From Escherichia phage MN01: a stretch of 64,000 nt of DNA. Shown piece after piece: positions 4,527 to 56,098 of the stretch. The notes beneath the pieces are model-generated. The model was not told the DNA's origin, ran no database searches, and worked only from the letters and a program-made list of their open reading frames with translations. Both the position numbers and the translations under genes were made by a program. The stretch lies in sequence record MT129652.1. One strand, given 5' to 3'. Each line of letters opens with the position of its first letter. Position 1 is the first letter of the stretch.

Positions 4527-5018
4527 ATGAATATATTCGAAATGTTACGCATAGATGAAGGTTGTAAGTTGGATTTGTATAAAGATACTGAAGGCTATTG
4601 GACCATTGGTATCGGGCAACTGATAACTAAGAACCCATCAAAAGATGTTGCTCGTGCCGAGCTCGACAAACTCATGGGTCGCGTCTGTAATGGTCGCATA
4701 ACCCAGCACGAAGCTGAAACATTGTTTAACCGTTCGGTCGAAAAAGCTAAAGCCGGAATCTTGAGACACCCTGTCTTAAAACCTGTTTATGATGTGCTAG
4801 ATGAAGTTCGTCGTTGTGCACTCATTAATATGGTATTCCAGATGGGTGTTGCTGGTGTTGCTGGTTTTCCTAAGGGTATGCGACTTCTGAAGTCTAAATC
4901 ATGGGAAGCAGCTGCTAAGGAACTGGCGGACTCAAGATGGTATAAAGTCCAGACTCCGAACCGAGCCAAACGAGTTATAGAAACGTTCCGTACTGGAACT
5001 TTTAGCGCATACAAATAA
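4527..5018 (+). CDS. e: Endolysin (T4 lysozyme e, muramidase)
   Basis: N-terminus [12 protein letters not shown]...[13 protein letters not shown] and [12 protein letters not shown]...PNRAKRVI closely match T4 lysozyme. Confidence 0.95.
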
Positions 5019-5026
5019 GGTAAAAT

Positions 5027-5329
5027 ATGAAAACGTATAAAGAATTTATCACCGAAGCGCGCGTAAGTGCAGGTAAATTAGAAGCCGCTGTAAATAAAAA
5101 GGCCCATTCATTTCATGATTTACCAGATAAAGACCGTAAGAAACTTGTAAGCCTTTATATTGACAAAGAGCGTATTCTAGCTCTCCCTGGCGCTAACGAA
5201 GGTAAACAGGCCAAGCCTTTGAATTCTGTCGAAAAGAAAATTGATAACTTTGCTTCTAAGTTCGGCATGTCTATGGATGACCTTCAGCAAGCGGCTATCG
5301 AAGCAGCTAAAGCAATTAAAGGTAAATAA
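5027..5329 (+). CDS. Internal head protein (IPIII/IPII-like) with capsid-targeting sequence
   Basis: Starts [11 protein letters not shown], matching the T4 internal-protein CTS MKTYQEFIAE with an I-x-E protease site; 100 aa; adjacent to e as in T4. Confidence 0.7.
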
Positions 5330-5331
5330 CA

Positions 5332-5384
5332 GTTTACTTCCACGATACGTGTGATATAATGTTCTCCTACAAACATAGGAGAAC
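5332..5384 (+). promoter_or_regulatory. Sigma70-type early promoter followed by SD-sequestering hairpin upstream of denV
   Basis: GTTTAC (5332-5337), 17-bp spacer, TATAAT (5355-5360); then GTTCTCCT/AGGAGAAC inverted repeat (5361-5384) containing the SD. Confidence 0.5.
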
Positions 5385-5388
5385 AAAC

Positions 5389-5805
5389 ATGACTCGCATT
5401 AATTTGACCCTGGTATCTGAACTTGCTGACCAACATCTTATGGCCGAATATCGTGAACTTCCTCGCGTGTTTGGCGCTGTTCGTAAGCATGTGCAAAATG
5501 GTAAAAAGGTTTCTGACTTTAAAATCCCATCATCTTTTCTTTTAGGGACTGGTCATGTCACCTTCTTTTATGATAAGCTTTTGTTCCTTAAAAACCGACA
5601 TCAAGAACTTATTGCGGAATGTTTAAAGCGAGGGTTTAACATAAAAGATATTTCTACCCAAGACTTAACTGATATTCCTGATGAATGGAAGAATGATTAT
5701 CAACCATCAATCTGGTCAATTGAAATCAGTCAAGCTAGGCTGAATGAGAAAATTTCTCAAAAGCCCGCTTGGTACAAATACTATGGGAAAGCTGTGTACG
5801 CTTAA
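5389..5805 (+). CDS. denV: Endonuclease V (pyrimidine-dimer DNA glycosylase)
   Basis: [35 protein letters not shown]... near-identical to T4 endonuclease V; 138 aa. Confidence 0.92.

Positions 5806-7344: not shown

Positions 7345-7348
<4 letters not shown>
7130..7348 (+). CDS. Hypothetical acidic protein
   Basis: Internal ATG at 7130 after GGAAAAAAT; 72 aa. Confidence 0.45.
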
Positions 7349-7928
<580 letters not shown>

Positions 7929-7984
7929 TGTACAAGCAGATTGAAATGAGTTATGATTATCCCATCAAACAAAAGGAGATAATC

Positions 7985-8443
7985 ATGACTACTATCGATT
8001 CAAGTGTTTACATTCGCCGCAATAAACTTCGTCGCATTTTTGAAACGGAGTTCCTCAAAATTAATAATGCTATCAACAAGGCTTGTAAAGAAGCAGGCCT
8101 TGAAGCATTCTTCATTAAGTACAGTCCGCACCTGTTGGACCGTGCAATCCAACGTGAAATTGATGAACAATATGTTTTTGACTTGTTTGGAAAAATCACA
8201 CCACATGTAAAAGAAATCGTTGAATTCCTGGAGATGAAACCACTCCCGGAAGTTGAAGCACAAATTGACCCGAATGTGAACTACCGTCCACTTCGTCTGG
8301 AAATCACAGACAAGAACCTGTGGTTAGGAATGACAGTTAACCCGGCTCTTCCTGGGAAGTCTCCAACCATGTGTTGTCGTATGGCGTTTGTTAACTCTAA
8401 TCGTCTGGAAGGAAAAATTAGCACAAAAGTAATTTATATCTAA
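7985..8443 (+). CDS. regB: Probable RegB-like sequence-specific endoribonuclease
   Basis: MTTIDSSVYIRRNKLRRIFETEF... resembles the remembered T4 RegB N-terminus; 152 aa vs 153 aa in T4; lies between denV and tk as in T4; AAAAGGAG SD. Confidence 0.5.
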   Translation: MTTIDSSVYIRRNKLRRIFETEFLKINNAINKACKEAGLEAFFIKYSPHLLDRAIQREIDEQYVFDLFGKITPHVKEIVEFLEMKPLPEVEAQIDPNVNYRPLRLEITDKNLWLGMTVNPALPGKSPTMCCRMAFVNSNRLEGKISTKVIYI

Positions 8444-8453
8444 TGGGGAATTC

Positions 8454-8996
8454 ATGAAAAAAGTAATCGCCACCTTACTATTGACAGTTAGTATGTCTGC
8501 CCATAGCGTAGAGCCTACTTTCAGTAATGAACAAATGGGAAACCTCCAATATGCTTATGCGTTTGGAGAACAGTTCCAGAAAAATGGTAAGTACAAAGAA
8601 AATCCGCACCAACATAATGGTTTGGGATATATCATGGCTGGTTTAGCCTGGCAGGAAAGTTCTGCCGGGATTAATACTGGATTAAATAAAGATAAGCACC
8701 ATGCATATGGTATATTCCAAAATTATCTTCCAACCATTCGCGAACGCGTGAAACAGGTTGGGTGGACAATGACAGATAAAGAAATAATCAAGATGATAAG
8801 CAAGAGAGAGAACAGCGCACGTTGGGCTTACATTGAGCTTTCATACTGGTTGAATATTCATAAGGGGGATATAAGAAAAACACTATCATCATATAACGCA
8901 GGGTGGAATGTGAAAGCTGGTAATACGTATGCTTCGCAGGTCCTAGAAAAAGCTAACTACTTAAAATCACGAGGCCTATTAAAAACGGTGGATTAA
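8454..8996 (+). CDS. Secreted lytic-transglycosylase-like protein
   Basis: N-terminal signal peptide MKKVIATLLLTVSMSAHS; motifs GLAWQESS, YGIFQ, SYNAGWN resemble family-1 lytic transglycosylase E-S / GLMQ / AYNxG. Confidence 0.55.
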   Translation: MKKVIATLLLTVSMSAHSVEPTFSNEQMGNLQYAYAFGEQFQKNGKYKENPHQHNGLGYIMAGLAWQESSAGINTGLNKDKHHAYGIFQNYLPTIRERVKQVGWTMTDKEIIKMISKRENSARWAYIELSYWLNIHKGDIRKTLSSYNAGWNVKAGNTYASQVLEKANYLKSRGLLKTVD

Positions 8997-8998
8997 AA

Positions 8999-9358
8999 AT
9001 GGTAAGAGTTATCACTTTAGCCATAGGGTTAGTATTCAGCATGGGAGGAATAGCTTCAGTACAGAGCGACGACAACAACAGCATCATAGAATATGCAACG
9101 AGGACGGCTAAAGATTATTGCGCAGCAAGCAATGTGGATTGTGTAATCCAGTTCAGCGCCAAGCTCACCGCAGCCTATAAAGACGGCCAAAATGATGTTG
9201 AACACACGCTTTTGAAAAAGAATGTATTGTCCAACAAATATGAAAAGAAATTATTTGAAATGGATTGCATTCTGTCAAGTGCAAAATATAAGGCGGCCTG
9301 CACCAGTATGGTGGACAGGTTAGTGGATTCATATAATAGAGGATTGAACTCTAAATGA
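8999..9358 (+). CDS. Secreted hypothetical protein
   Basis: 119 aa; signal-peptide-like N-terminus MVRVITLAIGLVFSMGGIASVQS; several Cys. Confidence 0.5.
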   Translation: MVRVITLAIGLVFSMGGIASVQSDDNNSIIEYATRTAKDYCAASNVDCVIQFSAKLTAAYKDGQNDVEHTLLKKNVLSNKYEKKLFEMDCILSSAKYKAACTSMVDRLVDSYNRGLNSK

Positions 9359-11798: not shown

Positions 11799-11803
11799 TT
11801 CAA

Positions 11804-11832
11804 AAGGTCTGCCTTCGGGTGGACCTTTTTTC
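11804..11832 (+). terminator. Rho-independent terminator
   Basis: AGGTCTGCCTTCGGGTGGACCT hairpin (UUCG loop) followed by TTTTTT. Confidence 0.6.
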
Positions 11833-11899
11833 ATTTAGGGGGTTTACATCCTCATAAAAAGGGTGTACTATTATCCCATCAACTACTGAGGAGAACACA

Positions 11900-12103
11900 A
11901 TGAGAATTAAAAATATTAAGATTGATGCAGTTAATACTGGTGATGAGGTTGTTATCTATCTTAATGATTATGCAATCTTTATGGACAGTGCCACTGATGA
12001 AGAAGTGGTTGAACTCTTACAGAAAGCTCCATTTGAACTGTGTGAAGAAGATGCTACTCATCTTTCATCAGCAATTTTCTCATTATCATATGTGGTGGAA
12101 TAA
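11900..12103 (+). CDS. Hypothetical protein
   Basis: 67 aa; promoter-leader cassette (ATCCCATCAACTACTGAGGAG) immediately upstream. Confidence 0.5.
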   Translation: MRIKNIKIDAVNTGDEVVIYLNDYAIFMDSATDEEVVELLQKAPFELCEEDATHLSSAIFSLSYVVE

Positions 12104-15332: not shown

Positions 15333-15393
15333 TTTTAAAGGTGTACAAACTTGTCTCTGTTGATGCATAATGAATTTTTACTAAGGAGCCATT

Positions 15394-15570
15394 ATGAATC
15401 ATATGAGACCTCGCGTATCCAAACAAACGCGAGAAGAAGCGATTGAACATTTTAAACGCCATCATGGAAGTCAATCATGCGAGGTGATTGTTGGTATCGA
15501 CATAGAAAAGATGAAGGAAACTGCCAAGCACTACCAGGGCAGGATTGATATTAAAAATTATATAAAGTAG
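15394..15570 (+). CDS. Hypothetical small protein (58 aa)
   Basis: ATG at 15394 with AAGGAG SD 7 nt upstream; below the ORF-track size cut-off. Confidence 0.4.
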   Translation: MNHMRPRVSKQTREEAIEHFKRHHGSQSCEVIVGIDIEKMKETAKHYQGRIDIKNYIK

Positions 15571-15639
15571 TGTACATCAGTATGGGGATAGACGTATAAT
15601 GTTCCCATACTGAGTTACCAAATAAAAACGGAGAATAAA
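15567..15639 (+). promoter_or_regulatory. Promoter-leader cassette, family A (GTGTACA...TATAAT in hairpin loop...CATACTGAGTTACCAAATA)
   Basis: Near-identical copy at 16154-16223; AGTATGGG/CCCATACT inverted repeat brackets the -10 TATAAT. Confidence 0.5.
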
Positions 15640-15846
15640 ATGTTAGAATTAATCAAAGCTGCTGGTGAAAAAGGTCTGATGGTTAACACTCGTGACCCTG
15701 AACAACGTCAAGCATTTGGTGAGTTAAAAGCTAAAGGTCTGGTTAAAGCATCCCTTGGTATTGGTAATGCTTTGCGTGTGACTTTGACCCCTGCTGGTAA
15801 AGCAATGTTCTTCCCTAAACCATTACCAAAACGTCGTCGCAAGTGA
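15640..15846 (+). CDS. Hypothetical small basic protein
   Basis: 68 aa; C-terminal PKPLPKRRRK. Confidence 0.5.
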   Translation: MLELIKAAGEKGLMVNTRDPEQRQAFGELKAKGLVKASLGIGNALRVTLTPAGKAMFFPKPLPKRRRK

Positions 15847-16155: not shown

Positions 16156-16223
16156 ATGTGTACATAGTATGGGGATAGACGTATAATGTTCCCATACTGA
16201 GTTACCAAATACTGGAGAATAAA
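16154..16223 (+). promoter_or_regulatory. Promoter-leader cassette, family A (second copy)
   Basis: GTGTACATAGTATGGGGATAGACGTATAATGTTCCCATACTGAGTTACCAAATA; differs from the 15567 copy at only a few positions. Confidence 0.5.
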
Positions 16224-16748
16224 ATGGAAGCCAAATCAATCTTTAATCTGATTAATTACAATAATGGTAATTTTAAATCAGAAGCACAAAGCAAGTTCTT
16301 TAATGATGTTGCTTGTGCAGGTGAGATTACAGTATCAGGTGGCCAAACTTATAAAAACGCCTGGAACTGGATTGTGACTGTTGATTCAGTTGGTATTGTT
16401 GATGTGTATAAAAACACCAATAAAAACCGCTCTTTGTTCTGGTCAAGAGAGACTAATGCTGAGTATCAGGCAACAAGAGCAAAGAAAAATATGCCTACTG
16501 AATCTGATGTACAAAACATCAAATCAGATATCCAGTATTATGATGGTCTGATTGCTGAACAACAAGCGGTGCTTGATAAGTTCAATGAAATCAAAGCATG
16601 CAAAGAAATTCCTGAATTCATGCGGGAATCAGTTAATGAACAATACAATCTCACTTCAGAGCGTATTGAAACCTATACCAAACAAAGAGCAGAGCGCCAG
16701 GTACTCCTTCAGAAGTTTGAAGAGCGTTTAAAGACGGTTCTCGCATAA
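16224..16748 (+). CDS. Hypothetical protein
   Basis: 174 aa ORF. Confidence 0.55.
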   Translation: MEAKSIFNLINYNNGNFKSEAQSKFFNDVACAGEITVSGGQTYKNAWNWIVTVDSVGIVDVYKNTNKNRSLFWSRETNAEYQATRAKKNMPTESDVQNIKSDIQYYDGLIAEQQAVLDKFNEIKACKEIPEFMRESVNEQYNLTSERIETYTKQRAERQVLLQKFEERLKTVLA

Positions 16749-18862: not shown

Positions 18863-18892
18863 GTTTACTTCCAAGGATGGAGGGAGTATAAT
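18863..18892 (+). promoter_or_regulatory. Sigma70-type early promoter
   Basis: GTTTAC, 18-bp spacer, TATAAT; upstream of gene 18920. Confidence 0.45.
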
Positions 18893-18919
18893 GAATTCCT
18901 ACTTTATGAGGAGAACACT

Positions 18920-19912
18920 ATGACGCGTAACGAATATATCCAGGCCTTTAATACCACTATTGATGCAAAAGTAAAACCATTAATAGGTGAATCGGCTATC
19001 CTTTTAATTATCAATTACTGGTTAAATCAGATTGACTCGACGATTGTTGCATCCGGTCGCTTCAAGAAAGACATTGCGACTATTGCGAGTCGTGCCGGTA
19101 AAGATGATATCAAGAAAACTTTTAAAGGTTCCCGAGTCCTGGCATACCTAGTTAATAAAGACCTTCTTAATAAGTTTGGTGTTGAATCCAGACGTGGTAA
19201 AGGTACAATTGGATATCATTGGTTTGGTGATGTTGAAAAATACTACCTTGATAATCAAGGCTATACTGTTTCTGAATTCGCAAATTGCTGGGCTCGTGAA
19301 TTCAGAGATAACAAAATGTCTATCATCAAATCAGCGACAAAATTGATGGGTGGCGATTATCGCACTATCTCCCATTTGGCTGAGCACATGATAAAGGTTA
19401 AAGAGTCTGGTGCAAACCAGGTAATTATTACAGCTAAGTATGGATTCTTTACGCCAGTGGCTACCCCAGAAAATGTCAAAAAGTATTTTGATGCTGCAAG
19501 TACGCTTACTTCACAGATGCAGTGTGCCCTTAATTATATGCGTACTGTTGAAAAAATTAAAGTAGACCCTATCACCAGTACTCATGGTTGGAAAGGTTGG
19601 AAAATTGTGGTGACATTACGCGAAGTTAAATGTGCAAAGCAACCAACTGTTGCAGAAATCCATAAAAAGAAAAATGAGGAAATTATGAACGCTCCGCATG
19701 AAGTTACCACCCTTGAAGACCTGATTGATAATCTGAATAATGAGCCAGTGAAACAAAAAGCGCCTGAAATTGTTGCCCTGGAAACAGCGTATAATGAAGC
19801 TCTTGCTGTTAATAAAAAAGCAACTGAAGACTATACAAAAGCCAAGCGACTTTGGGAAGAATCAACCAATCGTCTGGATAAACTGGAACAGGCCCTGGAG
19901 CTGCTGAAATGA
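18920..19912 (+). CDS. Hypothetical protein with C-terminal coiled coil
   Basis: 330 aa; C-terminus ...ESTNRLDKLEQALELLK. Confidence 0.55.
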   Translation: MTRNEYIQAFNTTIDAKVKPLIGESAILLIINYWLNQIDSTIVASGRFKKDIATIASRAGKDDIKKTFKGSRVLAYLVNKDLLNKFGVESRRGKGTIGYHWFGDVEKYYLDNQGYTVSEFANCWAREFRDNKMSIIKSATKLMGGDYRTISHLAEHMIKVKESGANQVIITAKYGFFTPVATPENVKKYFDAASTLTSQMQCALNYMRTVEKIKVDPITSTHGWKGWKIVVTLREVKCAKQPTVAEIHKKKNEEIMNAPHEVTTLEDLIDNLNNEPVKQKAPEIVALETAYNEALAVNKKATEDYTKAKRLWEESTNRLDKLEQALELLK

Positions 19913-22620: not shown

Positions 22621-23094
22621 ATGTTGTTGACTGGCAAATTATACAAAGAAGAAAAACAAAAACTTTATGATGCACAAGCTGGTAAGTGTCCAATTTGCCA
22701 CCGTGATTTGGACTCTGATGTTCAGGCCAACCATCTTGACCATGACCACGAATTGAACGGGCCAAAAGCCGGTAAGGTTCGCGGGTTACTATGCAATCTG
22801 TGCAATGGAACAGAAGGGCAAATGAAGCATAAGTTCAGCCGTTCGGGTCTGAAAGGTCGTGATGTTGACTACCTGGAATGGTTAGAGAGTTTGCTTGTCT
22901 ATCTGAAATCTGATTATACCGAAAACAATATTCACCCTAATTTTGTGACAGACAAAGCTAAAGAGTTCGGTCGCCTGGGGAAAGAAGAAATGATTCAGGA
23001 AATGCTTTTGAACGGCATGACTTATAATGAATCTGATACGAAGCCTAAACTACAAGCTTCATTTAAAAAACAACTGAGGAAATCGCTTAAATGA
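22621..23094 (+). CDS. 49: Endonuclease VII (Holliday junction resolvase)
   Basis: MLLTGKLYKEEKQKLYDAQAGKCPICHRDL...HLDHDHELNGPKAGKVRGLLCNLCN...KKQLRKSLK closely matches T4 gp49; 157 aa. Confidence 0.93.
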   Translation: MLLTGKLYKEEKQKLYDAQAGKCPICHRDLDSDVQANHLDHDHELNGPKAGKVRGLLCNLCNGTEGQMKHKFSRSGLKGRDVDYLEWLESLLVYLKSDYTENNIHPNFVTDKAKEFGRLGKEEMIQEMLLNGMTYNESDTKPKLQASFKKQLRKSLK

Positions 23095-23179
23095 TTAATT
23101 TTTATGGAATTATTGTATATTGTATTGGCGAAGCTATAAACAATTTAATACGATTGATGGGTGAGGAGTATCCTTCTCA

Positions 23180-23431
23180 ATGGCTATTCCTCGTAACCAA
23201 TACAGGACCTTTCTAATGAACAAATTTCGTAATGCTGTTTCTGATATCCTGGCCAATATTACATTTGTCTTGTTTATTGTGTGCCTTTTAATTCTGGTCG
23301 TCCCATTTGGATTGCTGTTTGTGATGATTGGCGCCCTGAGTACTGAAAAGGGCCTTGAAGGGTCTGAGTTCGACAAACGAATCCAGGCTGTCCATAGTGT
23401 TATTGCTAAAATGATGAAGGTGAAAGAATGA
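23180..23431 (+). CDS. Hypothetical membrane protein
   Basis: 83 aa; central hydrophobic helix ITFVLFIVCLLILVVPFGLLFVMIGAL. Confidence 0.4.
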   Translation: MAIPRNQYRTFLMNKFRNAVSDILANITFVLFIVCLLILVVPFGLLFVMIGALSTEKGLEGSEFDKRIQAVHSVIAKMMKVKE

Positions 23432-24030: not shown

Positions 24031-24092
24031 GGTGTACAAGCCCCTTTGAATGATGTATCATTATCCCATCAACTACTGATGAGGAAAACATA
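24031..24092 (+). promoter_or_regulatory. Promoter-leader cassette, family B (GTGTACA in hairpin loop, TATCAT -10, ATCCCATCAACTACTGATGAGGA leader)
   Basis: GGGG-TGTACAA-GCCCC hairpin; leader motif recurs at about 11862, 43640, 50280, 54410 and in degenerate form elsewhere. Confidence 0.5.
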
Positions 24093-24269
24093 ATGACTAT
24101 CCAAGATAAAGAAATTAAAGTCAACCAGTATTATTCAATCAACGGCAAAGCTGTTCTAGTAACTGAAATATCTAGCCTGGATGTGTGGTATACCATAATT
24201 GACCTTAATATTAAAATGATTTGTGACCGTGGTGTATTTTGTTCGATAGCTAAGGAAATTAAATTATGA
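24093..24269 (+). CDS. Hypothetical small protein (58 aa)
   Basis: ATG at 24093 directly after the family-B leader; stop overlaps next ATG. Confidence 0.4.
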   Translation: MTIQDKEIKVNQYYSINGKAVLVTEISSLDVWYTIIDLNIKMICDRGVFCSIAKEIKL

Positions 24270-25154: not shown

Positions 25155-25226
25155 AAACCAACGGGGTCATGGTATAATGACCCCAGGATAATAAAATTTT
25201 AATTTAATGAGACTGAGGAATATATC

Positions 25227-25553
25227 ATGACTGCATCTATCACTAACATCATCGCTAATTTCGCATTTGCTAAAGTTAACACTCTGATGAAATCTGGTTT
25301 TGTTACCCCTGAGATTCTGGACCAGTGGGAAGGCGATGTACAGAAACTGATTATTGCGGAAGGTCAGACAATGGGTAAAGCGCGTATTCGTGAAAGCCTT
25401 GTCCAGTATATCCTGAATGAATTTGATGTAGTAGCGTTTGGTTTACCGCTTCTGCGTGAAAACAAAGAAGTTTCTGATAAAGCTATCAAGCGTATGAAGT
25501 CCCAACGCAAGAAGGGGTTTGTTGACCTGAAAATTGTTAAGGGTGCAAAATGA
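25227..25553 (+). CDS. Hypothetical protein
   Basis: 108 aa; upstream GGGGTC-ATGGTATAAT-GACCCC hairpin with TATAAT in the loop. Confidence 0.5.
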   Translation: MTASITNIIANFAFAKVNTLMKSGFVTPEILDQWEGDVQKLIIAEGQTMGKARIRESLVQYILNEFDVVAFGLPLLRENKEVSDKAIKRMKSQRKKGFVDLKIVKGAK

Positions 25554-27748: not shown

Positions 27749-27922
27749 TGACGAATTCGACGGATTTTGATAAGATTAAATCTGACAAAAATGAGATGAT
27801 ACTTCAATTTGAAGCCGCTCGCATTAAAGCAGAAAATGAAGGTACTATTACCTATAAGCCTATCAAGTTCAGGTCTTCTCATGAACCTCTGTATGGTGTA
27901 TTAATTGGAAAGGAAGCCTAGT
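27749..27922 (+). CDS. Hypothetical small protein (57 aa)
   Basis: ATG at 27749 after AAGAGG; preceded by a short duplicated pseudo-start ATGAATGACGAAT. Confidence 0.3.
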
Positions 27923-27958
27923 GCTTCCTTTTTTGCTTTATATTCGGGATGATAAAAT
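27911..27958 (+). promoter_or_regulatory. Terminator hairpin immediately followed by a MotA-box middle promoter
   Basis: GGAAGC-CTAGT-GCTTCC + TTTTTT; then TTTGCTTTA, 12 nt, TAAAAT. Confidence 0.5.
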
Positions 27959-27978
27959 GAACCAACTGAGGAGATTAT

Positions 27979-28122
27979 ATGGAATTATTTTTAGGATATG
28001 TTGTGTTATTCATGGCATTCTACACATTCACACGAGCTTGTTGGATAGGATTCTTTTCTACTCCTGACGGGTTCATTTCAATAATTTTATTTTGCACTGC
28101 GATAACGGCGCTTGGCTTATGA
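27979..28122 (+). CDS. Hypothetical small membrane protein (47 aa)
   Basis: ATG after GAGGAG SD; hydrophobic; stop overlaps the gene 47 start (ATGA). Confidence 0.35.
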   Translation: MELFLGYVVLFMAFYTFTRACWIGFFSTPDGFISIILFCTAITALGL

Positions 28123-31275: not shown

Positions 31276-31992
31276 TTATTGAGGCTTCATTTTGCAGTTA
31301 TCAAAATGCCAACGTTTCATATTAGCTGGCATACCGACTACATTACAGTGTGGACACTGAATTTTGGGGTCCACCTTTTTCTTCCGGTTTGGATTGGATT
31401 TGCAGAATTGTTGGTGAGTGGATATAACACACTTTTTACCTTCAAGCCCGCAAAATTCACAATTTAAAATTTCATGTTTAGCTTGTTTTAAACCTACTGA
31501 AATTTTTTGCTTTTGCTTTTCCGGAATAGTATGAACAACCTTGTTTGGACCTTTGGAACAGTTATCAAAATGCCAACGATTCATATTGCCAGCGAGACCG
31601 GTTTTTCCACAGTGTGGACATTCGACTCTCGGTTTTAATTTGGCGGATTCTGACATTTTCTTTCTGGTTTCATCGGAGAAAATTTTATTTTGTTGAGCTT
31701 CCAAGTTTTTACGACGAAGCCATCCAAATAATTTGTTTTTGCTTCTGTCGGCATTTGGTGCAGAAACTGTCATCATGCGCGCGGCATAGACCAAAGAAGC
31801 GTTATTTGGATGCATTTTGACCAACAGTTGATGGCAAACGAAATGTTCCTCGGGAGTTAAATCAACAAGATTTGAAGCGTCGTCAGCCCCACCCATACAA
31901 CGGGGTATAATGTGATGGCTTTCAGAGTATGTGGTTAATTTGCGATTCAATGCTCTGCTAATAAGCTTTTGGTAAATGATGTTATAATTCAT
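31276..31992 (-). CDS. HNH homing-endonuclease-like protein with duplicated C-terminal zinc fingers
   Basis: Only long minus-strand gene in the region; HNH core SESHHIIPRCMGGADDASNLVDLTPEEHFVCH; repeats CPHCGKTGLAGNMNRWHFDNC and CPHCNVVGMPANMKRWHFDNC; start taken at internal ATG (MNYNIIYQ). Confidence 0.7.
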   Translation of the reverse strand: MNYNIIYQKLISRALNRKLTTYSESHHIIPRCMGGADDASNLVDLTPEEHFVCHQLLVKMHPNNASLVYAARMMTVSAPNADRSKNKLFGWLRRKNLEAQQNKIFSDETRKKMSESAKLKPRVECPHCGKTGLAGNMNRWHFDNCSKGPNKVVHTIPEKQKQKISVGLKQAKHEILNCEFCGLEGKKCVISTHQQFCKSNPNRKKKVDPKIQCPHCNVVGMPANMKRWHFDNCKMKPQ

Positions 31993-38142: not shown

Positions 38143-38211
38143 GTGTTTACAACGGCAAAGGACTGCCGTATGATTACTCCATCAACTGATGATTAAATTA
38201 AGGATATTAAA

Positions 38212-38454
38212 ATGGAAACATTAATTGCAGGTACTGTTGTTCTTGGCGCTGGTTCTTTCTTCCTGGCTGCACTGGCATATTTTCTGCCGTGGATTATCGC
38301 ACTACTGCGAGGAACCAAAAGTAATTGCGGAATCTTCTTTGTTAACCTCCTGTTAGGTTGGACAATGGTCGGATGGTTTATTGCATTTATCTGGGCACTC
38401 GTTGCTGAGCGTAAATCAAACGCACAAGTAATTATCATCAAGGAAACCAAATGA
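38212..38454 (+). CDS. imm: Imm-like superinfection immunity membrane protein
   Basis: 80 aa, two TM helices, LLGWTMVGWFIAFIWAL motif; immediately downstream of 43 as in T4. Confidence 0.55.
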   Translation: METLIAGTVVLGAGSFFLAALAYFLPWIIALLRGTKSNCGIFFVNLLLGWTMVGWFIAFIWALVAERKSNAQVIIIKETK

Positions 38455-42387: not shown

Positions 42388-42403
42388 AATATTTTTAAAA
42401 AAG

Positions 42404-42485
42404 GGGTGTACAAGCCCCTTGTCTTAGGACATAATGATTCCGTACTGAGTTACACAATAAACCAACTGTTAAAAAGGAAAACCAT
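42404..42485 (+). promoter_or_regulatory. Promoter-leader cassette (GGGG-TGTACAA-GCCCC hairpin, CATAAT -10, CGTACTGAGTTACACAATA leader)
   Basis: Hybrid of the family A leader with the family B style hairpin. Confidence 0.45.
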
Positions 42486-42795: not shown

Positions 42796-42818
42796 AAGGG
42801 GCTTACAGCCCCTTTTTC
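42796..42818 (+). terminator. Rho-independent terminator
   Basis: GGGGC-TTACA-GCCCC + TTTTT. Confidence 0.6.
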
Positions 42819-42856
42819 TTATGTTATAATGACTCTATCAACTACTGGAGAATAAA

Positions 42857-43174
42857 ATGAAAACCATTGATTGCAAGGCAGAATACAAAGTTTATTATCA
42901 TGGGTCAAGCTCTAATGCTGGAATCCAAAATATGCTTTGTCCTCCTGATGCAACTGGTGTTCTGTCAGAAGTTGGACGTAAGAAAAATTTAGGGCGTGTG
43001 TTTTTTACTGAAGATATTGGTTTGGCGCGTATCTATGCAGGAAGAGCAGCTCGCTCATATGGAGGAGAACCCCGTCTTTATCGTGTGATTGCACCGGTTG
43101 ACGTGGTTTGTTTAAATGATACTAAAGGCGCAACAGTTTATCACGCTGCCTGGGCCTTTTGTGAGGAAATCTAA
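42857..43174 (+). CDS. Hypothetical protein
   Basis: 105 aa ORF. Confidence 0.5.
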   Translation: MKTIDCKAEYKVYYHGSSSNAGIQNMLCPPDATGVLSEVGRKKNLGRVFFTEDIGLARIYAGRAARSYGGEPRLYRVIAPVDVVCLNDTKGATVYHAAWAFCEEI

Positions 43175-43618: not shown

Positions 43619-43675
43619 TGTACAACAAAGGGATAATGCTGTATATTATCCCTATCAACTACTGAGGAGATTGAA

Positions 43676-43969
43676 ATGAAAAAGTTATTAATCGCGGCAA
43701 TTCTTACCGTAGCATCATGTGGTACAGCTCCAGTTACTGCTGGACTTGATAAAGACCTTTGTGAGTGGTCTATGACTGCCGACCAGACTGATGTTGAACA
43801 TCAGATTTATGCTGATATCATGAACATAACTAAACGTGACCGCCCTGATATGGTTAAAGAAGTATCTGACCAATTGACTTCTGGTGACGTTATGCAGTAT
43901 AACTATGTTCTGTATTGCGATGCTTCATTTGACAATAGCAAAATTGTTCAATGGGTTACAGGTGAATAA
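43676..43969 (+). CDS. sp: Spackle-like periplasmic protein (possible superinfection exclusion)
   Basis: 97 aa with signal peptide MKKLLIAAILTVASCGTAPVTA; same size and position (between 41 and 61) as T4 Spackle. Confidence 0.5.
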   Translation: MKKLLIAAILTVASCGTAPVTAGLDKDLCEWSMTADQTDVEHQIYADIMNITKRDRPDMVKEVSDQLTSGDVMQYNYVLYCDASFDNSKIVQWVTGE

Positions 43970-49705: not shown

Positions 49706-50266
49706 ATGAACATCATCAAATCTGATACCGAACCCAACCAGTTAAAATTTAGTGAAATGGAGATAGCTTCATTATTTGAATGCCGCACATCAAAGGTTGA
49801 TAAGACCTTGCATTCAAATGTCAACTCAATCATCAAGTCAAGGTTGTCTATACCCGATACAGTCTTGTGGCGCGGAGTAACCCAGCAAGAGATTGATTTG
49901 TTAGATGAAGCAAAAGAATCAATGCAACCTTTTGAATTTGGACGGGTAACCTCCTTTACAGAAGACTATGGTATTGCCAGGGATTTTGCTGCAATGGAAT
50001 ATGTGACTAGGACTATCGTCAGATTGAATCAGACCAAAGCTTTTTGTTACCATGATGCGATGCGCAAAATCGCGCTTGACGTTCCACTGGAATTCTTCAA
50101 TACAGCTTCTGGTTCCGCCCGGGCAGCTACATTAAGGCGCGAAGAATACATGGACATGATTGATTCTGAGCTTGAATGGTTTGTTCCAGTTGACCAGAAA
50201 TTCGTGGTAGTTGACGCTGGATTTGTTGGTGATTATTATGTTCTTGACTGTGTACAAGAGCAATAA
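49706..50266 (+). CDS. ADP-ribosyltransferase, ModA/ModB-like (first copy)
   Basis: R-S-ExE triad candidates LWRGVT, TSFT, ELEWFVP; 186 aa; tandem with a paralog. Confidence 0.6.
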   Translation: MNIIKSDTEPNQLKFSEMEIASLFECRTSKVDKTLHSNVNSIIKSRLSIPDTVLWRGVTQQEIDLLDEAKESMQPFEFGRVTSFTEDYGIARDFAAMEYVTRTIVRLNQTKAFCYHDAMRKIALDVPLEFFNTASGSARAATLRREEYMDMIDSELEWFVPVDQKFVVVDAGFVGDYYVLDCVQEQ

Positions 50267-50310
50267 GACACGTTAAGATGTTCCTATCAACTACTGATGA
50301 GGATAATAAA

Positions 50311-50925
50311 ATGCTGTACACTGATGACGTTTTGAATGGAATTATTGACACTGCCGCTTCTAGCGAGTCTTTTCGTGACCAATGTCAAGCTGAGATTGAT
50401 GCTCTTTATACAGATAATGAGCAATCAGTACTCTGGCAGTGTATGGAAAATAAACCCGACCTGATTCAAGAAGACTTGTCCAGGATTATCCGCAACAATC
50501 TGAATACTGCACCGCCGGCAGCATTGTTCCGTGGTATATCAAAGAAAACCATGGAATACCTGGAAGATTTAAGATATGTTGGTGCAATAATTGAGTTCAA
50601 CCGTGTGATGAGTTTTTCCAGAGACTGGCAGGTTGCAAGAAATTTTGCATCATACAGTTTCTATGGCACAAGGAACATTTTCTGTATAAACAATGCACCA
50701 TATGCGTATAACTATCAGGAAGCAATCTTCAAAATGATTTGCGGTGCTCCTCCCGAAGAGTTCAATGGTGCATATCCAGAAGCAACCAGGAAGTCAAACC
50801 TACACCTGGTTAATGATGAGGATGAGTTTATGTTTCCCGCTGGGACTACGCTTCGCGTAGACTTGATTGAAACTCACCCATTGAATAACCTTTATACTGT
50901 TTGGCATTTGACTGTTTTGAACTAA
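50311..50925 (+). CDS. ADP-ribosyltransferase, ModA/ModB-like (second copy)
   Basis: LFRGIS, MSFS, DEDEFMFP motifs; 205 aa; family-B leader upstream. Confidence 0.6.
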   Translation: MLYTDDVLNGIIDTAASSESFRDQCQAEIDALYTDNEQSVLWQCMENKPDLIQEDLSRIIRNNLNTAPPAALFRGISKKTMEYLEDLRYVGAIIEFNRVMSFSRDWQVARNFASYSFYGTRNIFCINNAPYAYNYQEAIFKMICGAPPEEFNGAYPEATRKSNLHLVNDEDEFMFPAGTTLRVDLIETHPLNNLYTVWHLTVLN

Positions 50926-54378: not shown

Positions 54379-54445
54379 AAAGTAGTGTACAAGGCCAATG
54401 GAAAGAGACATAATTATCTCATCAACTACTGATGAGGATAACAAA

Positions 54446-54703
54446 ATGATTACTTCTTTTGAAATTGGCCAACAATATGAAATGTCTGCTCTTCAAGCTG
54501 CTGAAGCAGGTCTGACTAAAGCGTTTGAATGTGCATTTACAAATATTCGTGGTAAAATCTTTACTGTCAATAAAATTGCGGTATATGATAAAGAAACAGA
54601 CATGAACAAAGGCATCTACTTGAACGTGTCAAACGCAAAAGGTCGTCGTGAAATTATGGTTGTACAACCTAACCAACTGGCGATGTTCAATAAGGTTGCA
54701 TAA
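54446..54703 (+). CDS. Hypothetical protein
   Basis: Internal ATG right after the family-B leader; 85 aa. Confidence 0.45.
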   Translation: MITSFEIGQQYEMSALQAAEAGLTKAFECAFTNIRGKIFTVNKIAVYDKETDMNKGIYLNVSNAKGRREIMVVQPNQLAMFNKVA

Positions 54704-55458: not shown

Positions 55459-55537
55459 ATTTAAAGTGTACAAACTCTTGGGGTCGGAGTATAATGACCC
55501 CACTGGAGAATAAACTTATTAACCAAGAGAGAAAATT

Positions 55538-56098
55538 ATGAAAGTTGAAGCTGGCGAAATCGTTCGCGTATCCAAAAAATCTCGTTCAAGAGCTGCTGGA
55601 CGTTTTGTTGAGGTTGTCAGTATTCGTGCTGATATTTTTGTTGACCATCCTGATAATGAAGTAAAGGTGCGTATCATTCCCAAAAATGGTCAGACTGAAA
55701 CTCAATTCGCTTATGTACGTGCTAAATTCCTGGAATCAACTGCTATCACTGCCACCAACCTCCCTGTGGTTGAAGAAGTTGAATCCCATGATGGATATGT
55801 GTGCGAAAGCAATGATATTCGTGGCGTAATTGCTCAAGACGTTGAAACCATTGACCAGTCTCATGTTGGGGTTGATTTTAAATGGAAATTGGGCAAAGGT
55901 GTCTTTTTTGTTTCACCTAAACCGTTTGAATATGTTGACGAACCTTTTGGTACTTATGAAACCACTAGCATGTCTGGTTACATCACAGACCAGTGGGTTG
56001 AAGAAGGCGTTAAGCTCTATAACATCGTGTTCCTTGGAACCTTTAAGGTGGTTCCTGAAAGCTTTATCGTTGAGTATGCTGATATTCATCGTGCCTAA
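55538..56098 (+). CDS. Hypothetical protein; paralog of 54703..55458
   Basis: 186 aa; C-terminal GYITDQWVEEGVKLYNIVFLGTFKVVPES. Confidence 0.55.
   Translation: MKVEAGEIVRVSKKSRSRAAGRFVEVVSIRADIFVDHPDNEVKVRIIPKNGQTETQFAYVRAKFLESTAITATNLPVVEEVESHDGYVCESNDIRGVIAQDVETIDQSHVGVDFKWKLGKGVFFVSPKPFEYVDEPFGTYETTSMSGYITDQWVEEGVKLYNIVFLGTFKVVPESFIVEYADIHRA

Follow-up and report, generated by a model that had tools for sequence, protein, structure and literature searches.

Bacteriophage T4 makes an early, sequence-specific endoribonuclease, RegB, that cuts single-stranded RNA at GG^AG and, rarely, at GG^AU (PMC1702504, PMC3014915). The enzyme is stimulated by the host ribosomal protein S1, and the target is an 11-nt single-stranded RNA, GGAGRAYARAA, whose optimum is GGAGAAUAAAA (Durand 2006, PMC1702504). 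In this RegB/S1 rule the 7-nt tail is A-rich (RAYARAA) and excludes C at positions 5, 6, and 9, and nothing located 5′ of the GGA is needed (PMC1702504). A C at position 9 has been linked to the poor cutting of the T4 denV message (Durand 2006, PMC1702504). Variation in the fourth base is poorly tolerated in T4: of 30 intergenic GGAU sites only two, those of ORFs 55.2 and motB.2, are cut, each followed by a strict A-rich tail, and GGAA is cleaved very poorly even when followed by a perfect tail (PMC1702504). T4 regB is subject to auto-control, which is conserved in 35 phages (Uzan & Miller 2010, PMC3014915), and in vivo cleavage has been reported for the RegB of RB69 (PMC1702504, PMC3014915). 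Our literature search found no transcriptome-wide mapping of RegB sites.

T4-type phages also carry PeSLs, which are composite cassettes of an early promoter, a stem–loop, and a Shine–Dalgarno (SD) sequence (Arbiol 2010, PMC2839356; Comeau 2014, PMC4122927). Crossovers have been mapped between the −10 element and the ATG of such cassettes (Arbiol 2010, PMC2839356). When used as a search term, "RegB" does not occur in either of these two papers (PMC2839356, PMC4122927).

The DNA analyzed here, called the window below, is a stretch of 64,000 nt from Escherichia phage MN01. It shares ∼96% identity with three phages of the genus Gaprivervirus (Tevenvirinae), namely Escherichia phage ECML-359, Yersinia phage vB_YenM_P8, and vB_EcoM_RZ, without matching any of them exactly, and its source is classed by similarity as a Gaprivervirus-like T4-type phage (Tevenvirinae). 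The best overall explanation of the features described below, which we consider likely, is that the phage encodes a T4-type RegB together with early leaders that carry RegB/S1 sites, in keeping with T4 regulatory logic.

The regB gene and its own leader

The predicted product of the regB ORF (Table 1) matches the Pfam family REGB_T4 (PF10715) with an E-value of 3.8e-72 and a score of 241.6 bits over profile positions 1–147 of 148. This full-length match lies above the curated family threshold of 27 bits and places the protein in the family. Matches were also obtained to PHROG 1323 "endoribonuclease" (E=3.7e-72) and to PDB 2hx6, the structure of T4 RegB H48A (E=2e-49). The first-pass annotation had compared this protein to T4 RegB on the basis of its N-terminus and map position, and both likenesses were borne out. 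The segment VYIRRNKLRRIF aligns with VFIRRNKLRRHF in T4, and the IRRNKLRR it had pointed to belongs to an N-terminal block with little or no variation across the RegB family. The gene order vs.4, vs.3-position ORF, regB, vs.1, vs, tk.4 is as in T4 and RB69. Moreover, the alignment with T4 RegB that it had proposed as a check reveals similarity over the full length, with 58%–60% identity; identity to RB69 RegB is 65%. Gaprivervirus proteins annotated as regB or site-specific RNA endonuclease (UPEC01, VR25, VR26) are 99%–100% identical to the window protein. By homology, ORF 7985–8443 is a full-length, ordinary T4-type RegB orthologue of a Gaprivervirus-like coliphage.

Annotation transferred from vB_EcoM_RZ places regB in a run of + strand genes: nudE, e, denV, vs.4, regB, vs.1, vs, tk.4, tk, rI, nrdC, 49, 55, 47, 46, 45, 44, 62, regA, 43, imm, uvsX, 40, 41, dmd, sp, 61, mrh, modA, modB, srd, dda, dexA, motB, cef, 39, rIIA, and rIIB. 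Within this run regB has its own early-type promoter, whose −35 hexamer directly abuts the TAG stop codon of the upstream gene. The SD sequence contains GGAG at positions 7975–7978 (GGAGATAATCA) in the arrangement AAGGAG-N6-ATG, and this GGAG is a presumed auto-cleavage site of the regB mRNA. Its A-rich tail matches just three of seven consensus positions and is poorer than that of T4 regB (GGAGAATAACA). Of 28 distinct sequences upstream of regB in viral contigs, 26 have GGAG and one has GGAU, almost all just 3′ of an early promoter, which agrees with the published auto-control (PMC3014915).

Early promoter–leader units and candidate RegB/S1 sites

A generic σ70 scan around regB revealed no excess of promoter-like sites (14 vs. 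15.8 expected) and was dropped; real units stand out only when the T4-type pattern T[GT]TACA-N16-18-TAnnnT is required together with an intergenic position. The T4-type pattern has 38 + strand and 17 − strand matches in the window, and half of the + strand matches (19/38) have their −10 element in intergenic DNA, which makes up 6% of the window. Curation yielded 22 intergenic early-type promoters, each with a gene start within 90 nt. The anatomy of these cassettes is TGTACA-N17-TATAAT, a predicted leader of 16–36 nt, an SD sequence, and ATG, where transcription is assumed to start at the end of the −10 element plus 7. The leaders form at least two families, one with ATCAACTACTGA... (about nine members, degenerate ones included) and the other with ATACTGAGTTACCAAAT... 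(15609, 16196, 42444, and 51022). Representative units are presented in Table 1.

Table 1. Features of the regB locus and of early promoter–leader cassettes in the window
Feature	Positions	Strand	Details
regB neighbourhood	7345-9355	+	Starts: vs.4 7345, vs.3-position ORF 7623, regB 7985, vs.1 8454, vs 8999, tk.4 9355
regB promoter and leader	7929-7984	+	−35 TGTACA 7929-7934, N17, −10 TATGAT 7952-7957; predicted start near 7964 (ATCAAA)
regB coding sequence	7985-8443	+	ATG 7985, stop 8443; 152 aa plus stop; AAGGAG six bases upstream of ATG
denV cassette	5333-5391	+	Candidate site GGAGAACAAAC 5378-5388 (6/7)
denV SD hairpin	5361-5368 with 5377-5384		8 bp, GTTCTCCT can pair with AGGAGAAC; 5′ arm mostly upstream of predicted transcription start
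Terminator hairpin	11802-11829		Just 5′ of mobD.5-position cassette
mobD.5-position gene cassette	11843-11902	+	TTTACA-N17-TACTAT; leader ATCAACTACTGAGGAG; predicted site GGAGAACACAA 11890-11900 (6/7); ATG 11900
Cassette of second leader family, ATACTGAGTTACCAAATA...	15571-15642	+	Perfect match GGAGAATAAAA 15630-15640; stem–loop encloses −10 hexamer
Second copy of ATACTGAGTTACCAAATA... family	16159-16226	+	Perfect match GGAGAATAAAA 16214-16224
Cassette with GAGGAGAACACTATG	18864-18922	+	Candidate site GGAGAACACTA 18910-18920 (5/7)
55.6 cassette	24033-24095	+	ATCAACTACTGATGAGGAA; GGAAAACATAA 24083-24093 (GGAA); −35 hexamer in loop of hairpin GGGGTGTACAAGCCCC
imm cassette	38146-38214	+	Leader ATCAACTGATGA...; GGATATTAAAA 38202-38212 (GGAU, 6/7)
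Cassette with leader ATCAACTACTGGAGAATAAAATG	42802-42859	+	Perfect T4 consensus match GGAGAATAAAA 42847-42857
sp cassette	43619-43678	+	Leader ATCAACTACTGAGGAG; candidate site GGAGATTGAAA 43666-43676 (5/7); ATG 43676
modB cassette	50251-50313	+	Leader ATCAACTACTGATGAGGAT without GGAG; GGATAATAAAA 50301-50311 (GGAU, 7/7); probable ATG 50311
motB.2-position cassette	54386-54448	+	ATCAACTACTGATGAGGAT; GGATAACAAAA 54436-54446 (GGAU, 7/7); probable ATG 54446; gene named by map position (between dexA and motB-like gene)
motB cassette	55467-55540	+	GGAGAATAAAC 55505-55515 near leader 5′ end, 33 nt before ATG

To compare initiation regions, 140 + strand gene starts were used that were either transferred from vB_EcoM_RZ by tblastn or called by us. 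Two of these starts were corrected by hand (50278 to 50311 and 54398 to 54446), and the set is imperfect, with at least three starts wrong or doubtful, including that of a small ORF upstream of gene 47 (the 47.1 position). GGAG is present in the SD sequence of 10 of the 22 promoter-proximal genes vs. 12 of the 118 others (Fisher p=2e-4), and GGA[G/U] followed by a tail matching at least six of seven positions is present in 8 of 22 promoter-proximal initiation regions vs. 0 of 118 others (p=1e-7), where both p-values are inflated because the cassettes are paralogous and represent roughly six independent leader lineages. When the tail is relaxed to at least five of seven matches, the counts are 10/22 and 4/118.

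Tails with at least six matches follow GGAG at 5378, 11890, 15630, 16214, 42847, and 55505, and GGAU at 38202, 50301, and 54436; the candidate site at 11890 has C at position 9. Exact matches to GGAGRAYARAA number three (15630, 16214, 42847) where 0.47 are expected, and all three read GGAGAATAAAA and begin 10 nt before the start codon (ATG). Other promoter-proximal genes (12/22) lack GGAG, and the hard-wiring of RegB sensitivity into the leaders is therefore partial.

The T4 leaders that we checked have GGAG or GGAU at the same genes, even though the intergenic DNA of T4 and the window has otherwise diverged. These T4 sequences are GGAGAATAACA at regB, GGAGAACACTA at denV, GGAGAACATCA at mobD.5, GGAGATTATCA at sp, GGATAATAAAA at motB.2, and GGAGTATAAAA in the motB leader, the last of these at the same place, near the leader 5′ end, as GGAGAATAAAC in the window. 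The T4 sp leader carries the same block (aACTACTGAGGAGATTATCATG) as the sp cassette here, and the T4 motB.2 leader (gCTACTGAGGATAATAAAATG) matches the leader around 54436 in both block and type of site. The T4 motB.2 GGAU is cleaved experimentally and is one of just two GGAU sites found to be cut in T4 (PMC1702504).

The predicted leaders are weakly structured, with minimum free energies between −2 and −14 kcal/mol under the assumed starts, all but two being weaker than −8.5. In the same folding predictions, which also depend on the assumed starts, GGAN is unpaired with a mean probability of 0.22 to 0.87, depending on the leader. Most candidate sites would be largely unpaired in the short leaders, which is compatible with accessibility. 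Masking of the site by a stem–loop in read-through transcripts was tested across the cassettes and is clear for denV only.

The best-supported scheme for these features follows T4. The ∼22 early promoters in the window would drive very short leaders, and a subset of these, including that of regB itself, would place a RegB/S1 site in the SD region such that the 11th base of the site is the A of the AUG. RegB, expressed from an immediate-early promoter and made in the first minutes of infection, would act with S1 to cut the SD sites, and this cutting would destroy the ribosome-binding site, end translation, and trigger decay. In this way RegB would silence a defined subset of immediate-early mRNAs along with its own, and middle and late messages, which lack the full site, would be spared. 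From homology, conserved residues, synteny, promoter–leader anatomy, site statistics, and T4 correspondence, which constitute the demonstrated basis, we infer the enzyme activity, the S1 requirement, the cutting of the sites, and the positions of the transcription starts.

A sequence block shared among leaders

It had also been proposed that many early leaders carry a conserved block that contains the GGAG cut by RegB. The exact block, ACTACTGA[G/T]GAG, has five copies in the window, all on the + strand (11882, 24072, 43658, 50290, and 54425), compared with 0.13 expected, and none of 100 shuffles reaches five. "Many" overstates the frequency of the exact block, but the word does suit the wider set of ∼22 early promoter–leader units, whose SD sequence contains GGAG in 10 cases. 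Likewise, GGAG is contained in two of the five copies (11882 and 43658, which read GAGGAG) but not in the three GATGAGGA copies, which read GGAA (24083) or GGAT (50301 and 54436). Taken alone, GATGAGGA is marginal: Five occurrences were found vs. 2.0 expected, five is reached in 6 of 100 shuffles, and only three of the five are leader copies.

All five blocks are located 3′ of an early-type promoter, and each ends 7–10 nt 5′ of a start codon. The block makes up the 3′ portion of an extended unit composed of an upstream stop codon, TGTACA or TTTACA, 17 nt, TAnnAT, TATCCC, ATCAACTACTGA, an SD sequence, 6–8 nt, and ATG. An nhmmer profile of this 85-nt unit recovers the five copies and the regB upstream region with E-values from 1e-13 to 4e-20, as well as weaker relatives, and all of its matches are on the + strand in front of genes.

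RegB/S1 requires GGA and 7–8 nt on its 3′ side, and the block is located 5′ of this sequence; the block itself is therefore not the RegB determinant. More probably, ACTACTGA[G/T]GAG is the transcribed 5′ part of one cassette family and frames the SD sequence. The conserved ATCAACTACTGA is better explained, judging from its sequence and position, as a 5′ segment, free of G and unstructured, that the members of a single family of PeSL-type cassettes have in common. The proposal that RegB sensitivity is built into the early leaders thus survives at the sequence level, as the tail counts and the matching T4 orthologous leaders indicate, but it applies to part of the leaders and does not operate through the ACTACTGA block.

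The published PeSL parts are found in the 22 intergenic units, where an upstream stop codon abuts the −35 element and is accompanied by an AT-rich upstream stretch, σ70-like hexamers 17 nt apart, and then an SD sequence and ATG. Many units, though not all, have a stem–loop that encloses the −35 or −10 element. Examples are GGGGTGTACAAGCCCC (24029 and 42403), CAGTATGGGGA...TCCCATACTG (15578–15612), GGGATAAT...ATTATCCC (43630s), and GGGGTC...GACCCC (55480s). When the window is compared with vB_EcoM_RZ, at least 6 of the 21 indels have a breakpoint on or beside a cassette edge (1277, 5378, 15336/15570, 42389–42405, and 43613). This pattern is consistent with the published recombination role of PeSLs, but the enrichment does not settle the matter: a whole-ORF indel can only break in intergenic DNA, and cassettes make up ∼40% of that DNA.

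Given these features, we assign an even chance to an explanation in which the promoter–leader block is not specific to RegB. The block would be PeSL-type shared sequence kept alike by recombination between copies and by selection that favors an efficient early promoter, a 5′ leader free of G and of structure, and a strong SD sequence. GGAG would then be a ribosome-binding site, and RegB sensitivity a by-product. In addition to the PeSL parts, the indels at cassette edges, and the crossovers mapped by Arbiol 2010, this explanation accommodates the conservation of ATCAACTACTGA 5′ of the GGA, where RegB/S1 has no known requirement, and the lack of GGAG in three of five block copies. Avoidance of SD-like sequence in genes also fits. 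We had considered the avoidance of GGAG in genes as a signature of RegB and rejected it: GGAG occurs at 0.56 of the synonymous-shuffle expectation, but GAGG (0.65) and AGGA (0.80) are likewise depleted, which indicates a general avoidance of SD-like tetramers rather than an effect of RegB. Furthermore, GGAG with an A-rich spacer is a sequence to be expected wherever an AT-rich phage has a strong ribosome-binding site, and such a spacer favors translation.

What recombination and ribosome binding leave unexplained is the RegB/S1 site. The A-rich tail of at least six matches is confined to promoter-proximal regions, the tail is perfect at both GGAU variants of the block, which is the condition for GGAU cutting in T4, and T4 has GGAG or GGAU at the same genes despite diverged intergenic DNA. 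The two explanations are compatible and can both be true, with shared PeSL-type sequence accounting for the block and RegB for the site.

The block is distributed beyond the window. A 71-nt cassette recurs three to seven times in each of 33 Gaprivervirus genomes (blastn). Although the 71-nt query matched these Gaprivervirus records only, a genus-specific leader is ruled out by the presence of the short block in T4 and RB69-like leaders. The segment ATCAACTAC[T/A]G(A)GGAG recurs at T4 sp, with close variants at T4 denV and motB.2. RB69-like regB leaders carry it too, and so do several viral contigs of T4-like or RB69-like type, in which the next bases are AATAAAATG, AATAACATG, or AATATCATG. Exact 14–15-mer scans of viral contigs return mostly chance matches in unrelated contigs, and the 14 matches from T4-like contigs are the informative ones.

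A more tentative idea, which we regard as rather doubtful, is that an invariant, G-free 5′ leader AUCAACUACUGA, a RegB/S1 site, and a start codon together form a portable "early on, then off" module that is conserved across Tevenvirinae genera and is kept by selection at the RNA level, not only by recombination. The range of AUCAACUACUGA comprises Gaprivervirus, T4 (at sp, with the close variants at denV and motB.2), and T4-like and RB69-like contigs. If this idea is true, then any ORF landing behind a PeSL-type cassette would gain immediate-early expression along with RegB-mediated shut-off, and PeSL gene shuffling would be linked to post-transcriptional control. That PeSL-type cassettes carry predicted RegB/S1 sites is, in itself, a small synthesis and not a discovery.

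Active-site residues and comparison with known systems

Residues equivalent to T4 His48, Arg52, and Glu19 are all conserved in the window protein (His49, Arg53, and Glu20, respectively). In an alignment of 24 RegB family members, the Arg52 position is invariant and the His48 position is nearly so, the sole exception being the H48A PDB chain. The T4 allele R52L is a null that has served as a control (Durand 2006, PMC1702504). The second catalytic histidine is absent here: The T4 His68 position is occupied by Gly69 (8189–8191). This position is His in 9 of the 24 family members and Asn, Lys, Gly, Glu, Arg, or Ser in the others. Similarly, the T4 His42 position is Phe43 in the window protein, and His42 tends to co-vary with His68 across the family. 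In this alignment His68 is a feature of the T4/RB69 subgroup and does not define the family, and Gly69 is a caveat for the predicted activity of the protein, not for its homology.

These substitutions could mean that the RegB encoded here is catalytically weakened or altered in specificity (His68 to Gly69, His42 to Phe43), such that GGAG leaders are cut inefficiently. A review describes the catalytic histidines of T4 RegB as His48 and His68, and RB69 RegB, which is reported to be active in vivo, retains His68 in the alignment. We know of no tested RegB that lacks this residue. However, the variation within the family at the His68 position contrasts with strong conservation elsewhere in the protein (33 invariant columns), which argues for purifying selection on a working protein. 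The phage has also retained the early promoter and GGAG-containing SD sequence of regB along with the target-like sites. We view a weakened or altered enzyme as unlikely.

Finally, chance recurrence of SD-like sequence, which the count of GATGAGGA alone (five vs. 2.0) might suggest, is refuted as a source of the repeated block by the 12-mer count (five vs. 0.13, 0/100 shuffles), the nhmmer E-values (1e-13 to 4e-20), and the recurrence in 33 Gaprivervirus genomes, and we give it almost no credence.

The notion of RegB sensitivity encoded in the early leaders is correct in substance, as far as sequence can tell, and is already established T4 biology (PMC3014915, PMC1702504). Both the gene and its regulatory logic are known, and the importance of this locus beyond correct annotation is small. 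At the level of sequence, the T4 scheme of an early nuclease that shuts off immediate-early messages, including its own, extends to Gaprivervirus, and the T4 rules (GGAG or GGAU with an A-rich tail) cleanly single out early leaders in this genome. By-products of the analysis are a list of predicted cleavage sites and corrected start codons for two genes. In addition, the "catalytic" His68 of T4 proves not to be conserved in most of the RegB family.

Several known systems resemble the one described here to differing degrees. RelE and YoeB, which are ribosome-associated mRNA interferases, are reported in the literature to share the fold of T4 RegB and to cut after the second base of a triplet, but they are not known to have sequence similarity to RegB, and their active-site layout is reportedly different. 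The cassettes resemble PeSLs in having the same parts in the same order, in their placement in variable early regions, and in some indel breakpoints at their edges. They differ in that the −35 consensus here is TGTACA/TTTACA and in that one leader family has an invariant ATCAACTACTGA 5′ segment, which is also present in T4, T4-like, and RB69-like genomes. The sites resemble the RegB/S1 consensus, with three exact GGAGAATAAAA sequences, two perfect-tailed GGAU sites, and several sites with six of seven matches, all in early leaders; the 11th base of the predicted sites is the A of the ATG in all except the motB-leader site. The protein resembles T4 RegB in length, identity, the His48, Arg52, and Glu19 equivalents, neighboring genes, possession of its own early promoter, and a GGAG-containing SD sequence, and differs from it in having Gly for His68 and Phe for His42, a pattern that is common to a sizeable RegB subgroup. 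By these comparisons, nothing in the window appears to depart from the T4 scheme.

RegB and its target tetramers

RegB, a T4-type endoribonuclease that in T4 cuts GGAG (rarely GGAU) in early-gene SDs, carries Gly69 (8189-8191) in alignment with T4 His68, a residue with a reported catalytic role, and Phe43 (8111-8113) in alignment with T4 His42. Only nine of the 24 RegB homologues have His at the T4 His68 position, and all nine of these also have His42. The alignment suggests that the family is divided into His/His and non-His subgroups.

When all plus-strand coding sequence in the window is considered, the sense strand carries fewer SD-like tetramers than synonymous codon shuffling predicts (GGAG 0.56, GAGG 0.65, AGGA 0.80), whereas the complement CTCC exceeds the prediction (1.33). 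GGAG occurs 88 times on the plus strand of the whole window versus 136 times on the minus strand.

Leader structures and start codons

A perfect 8-bp inverted repeat, GTTCTCCT / AGGAGAAC at 5361-5384, takes in the denV SD. The computed unpaired probability of the SD and its GGAG is 0.00 in read-through RNA versus 0.35 in promoter-proximal RNA. Because most of the 5′ arm precedes the start predicted for the proximal promoter, both elements would be concealed in read-through RNA but partly accessible in the promoter-proximal RNA.

Another leader family, ATACTGAGTTACC/ACAAAT..., is conserved at 15609, 16196, 42444, and 51022, in each case downstream of an early promoter. The units at 15571 and 16159 form a 12-14 bp stem with the −10 hexamer in its loop. 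The promoter-like unit before the ORF at 25227 is arranged like the motB leader, with GGATAATAAAA at 25186 immediately after its GACCCC. The unit lacks an evident −35 and could be a middle promoter.

The starts annotated for modB and the motB.2-position gene in the relative vB_EcoM_RZ (RZ) map to ATGs at 50278 and 54398 in the window, which lie inside the early promoter, either upstream of the −10 or within it. The alternative ATGs in the table are more likely to be the true starts.

In the GATGAGGA leader variant, an additional ATG begins a mini-ORF of 4-5 codons (24078-24092 and 54431-54449), whose stop overlaps the true start codon (TAATG at 24093, ATGA at 54446). The third copy (50297) departs from this pattern. 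The mini-ORF has no SD in front of it.

Upstream of gene 47, the small ORF with SD GAGGAG probably occupies the 47.1 position. The GGAG of T4 47.1 is moderately cleaved.

Features located in the window
Feature	Position	Strand	Description
modB, alternative start	50311		ATG 7 nt after SD GAGGAT
motB.2-position gene, alternative start	54446		ATG 7 nt after SD GAGGAT
Promoter-like unit	25160-25196		GGGGTC-ATGGTATAAT-GACCCC, −10 in loop; precedes ORF at 25227
Region upstream of gene 47	27910-27982		Terminator-like hairpin GGAAGC...GCTTCC and T run, then MotA-box-like TGCTTTA, then small ORF with SD GAGGAG (GGAGATTATAT)
238-aa ORF	31276-31992	−	Inserted after gene 46
Small-ORF insertions, replacements, or deletions versus RZ	1277-1510, 5012-5377, 15336-15569, 42389-42405, 43358-43613		

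Gene content relative to RZ

At 23092-23215 the window lacks nrdD and nrdG, the genes for anaerobic ribonucleotide reductase. In RZ they take up 2.4 kb, with gene 49 on one side and the next small ORF on the other; here the stretch from gene 49 (22621-23094) to the ORF at 23216 measures only 124 nt. After gene 46, the window holds 773 nt versus 46 nt in RZ. Over its N-terminal ∼98 residues, the ORF inserted there shares 38% identity with a protein that the RZ annotation lists as a homing endonuclease at another locus.

The breakpoints of the small-ORF changes in the table lie at or adjoin the edges of cassettes (early promoter, short leader, SD, and ATG). This placement is compatible with the pattern described for shuffling mediated by PeSL, the published promoter/stem-loop/SD unit of T4-type phages.
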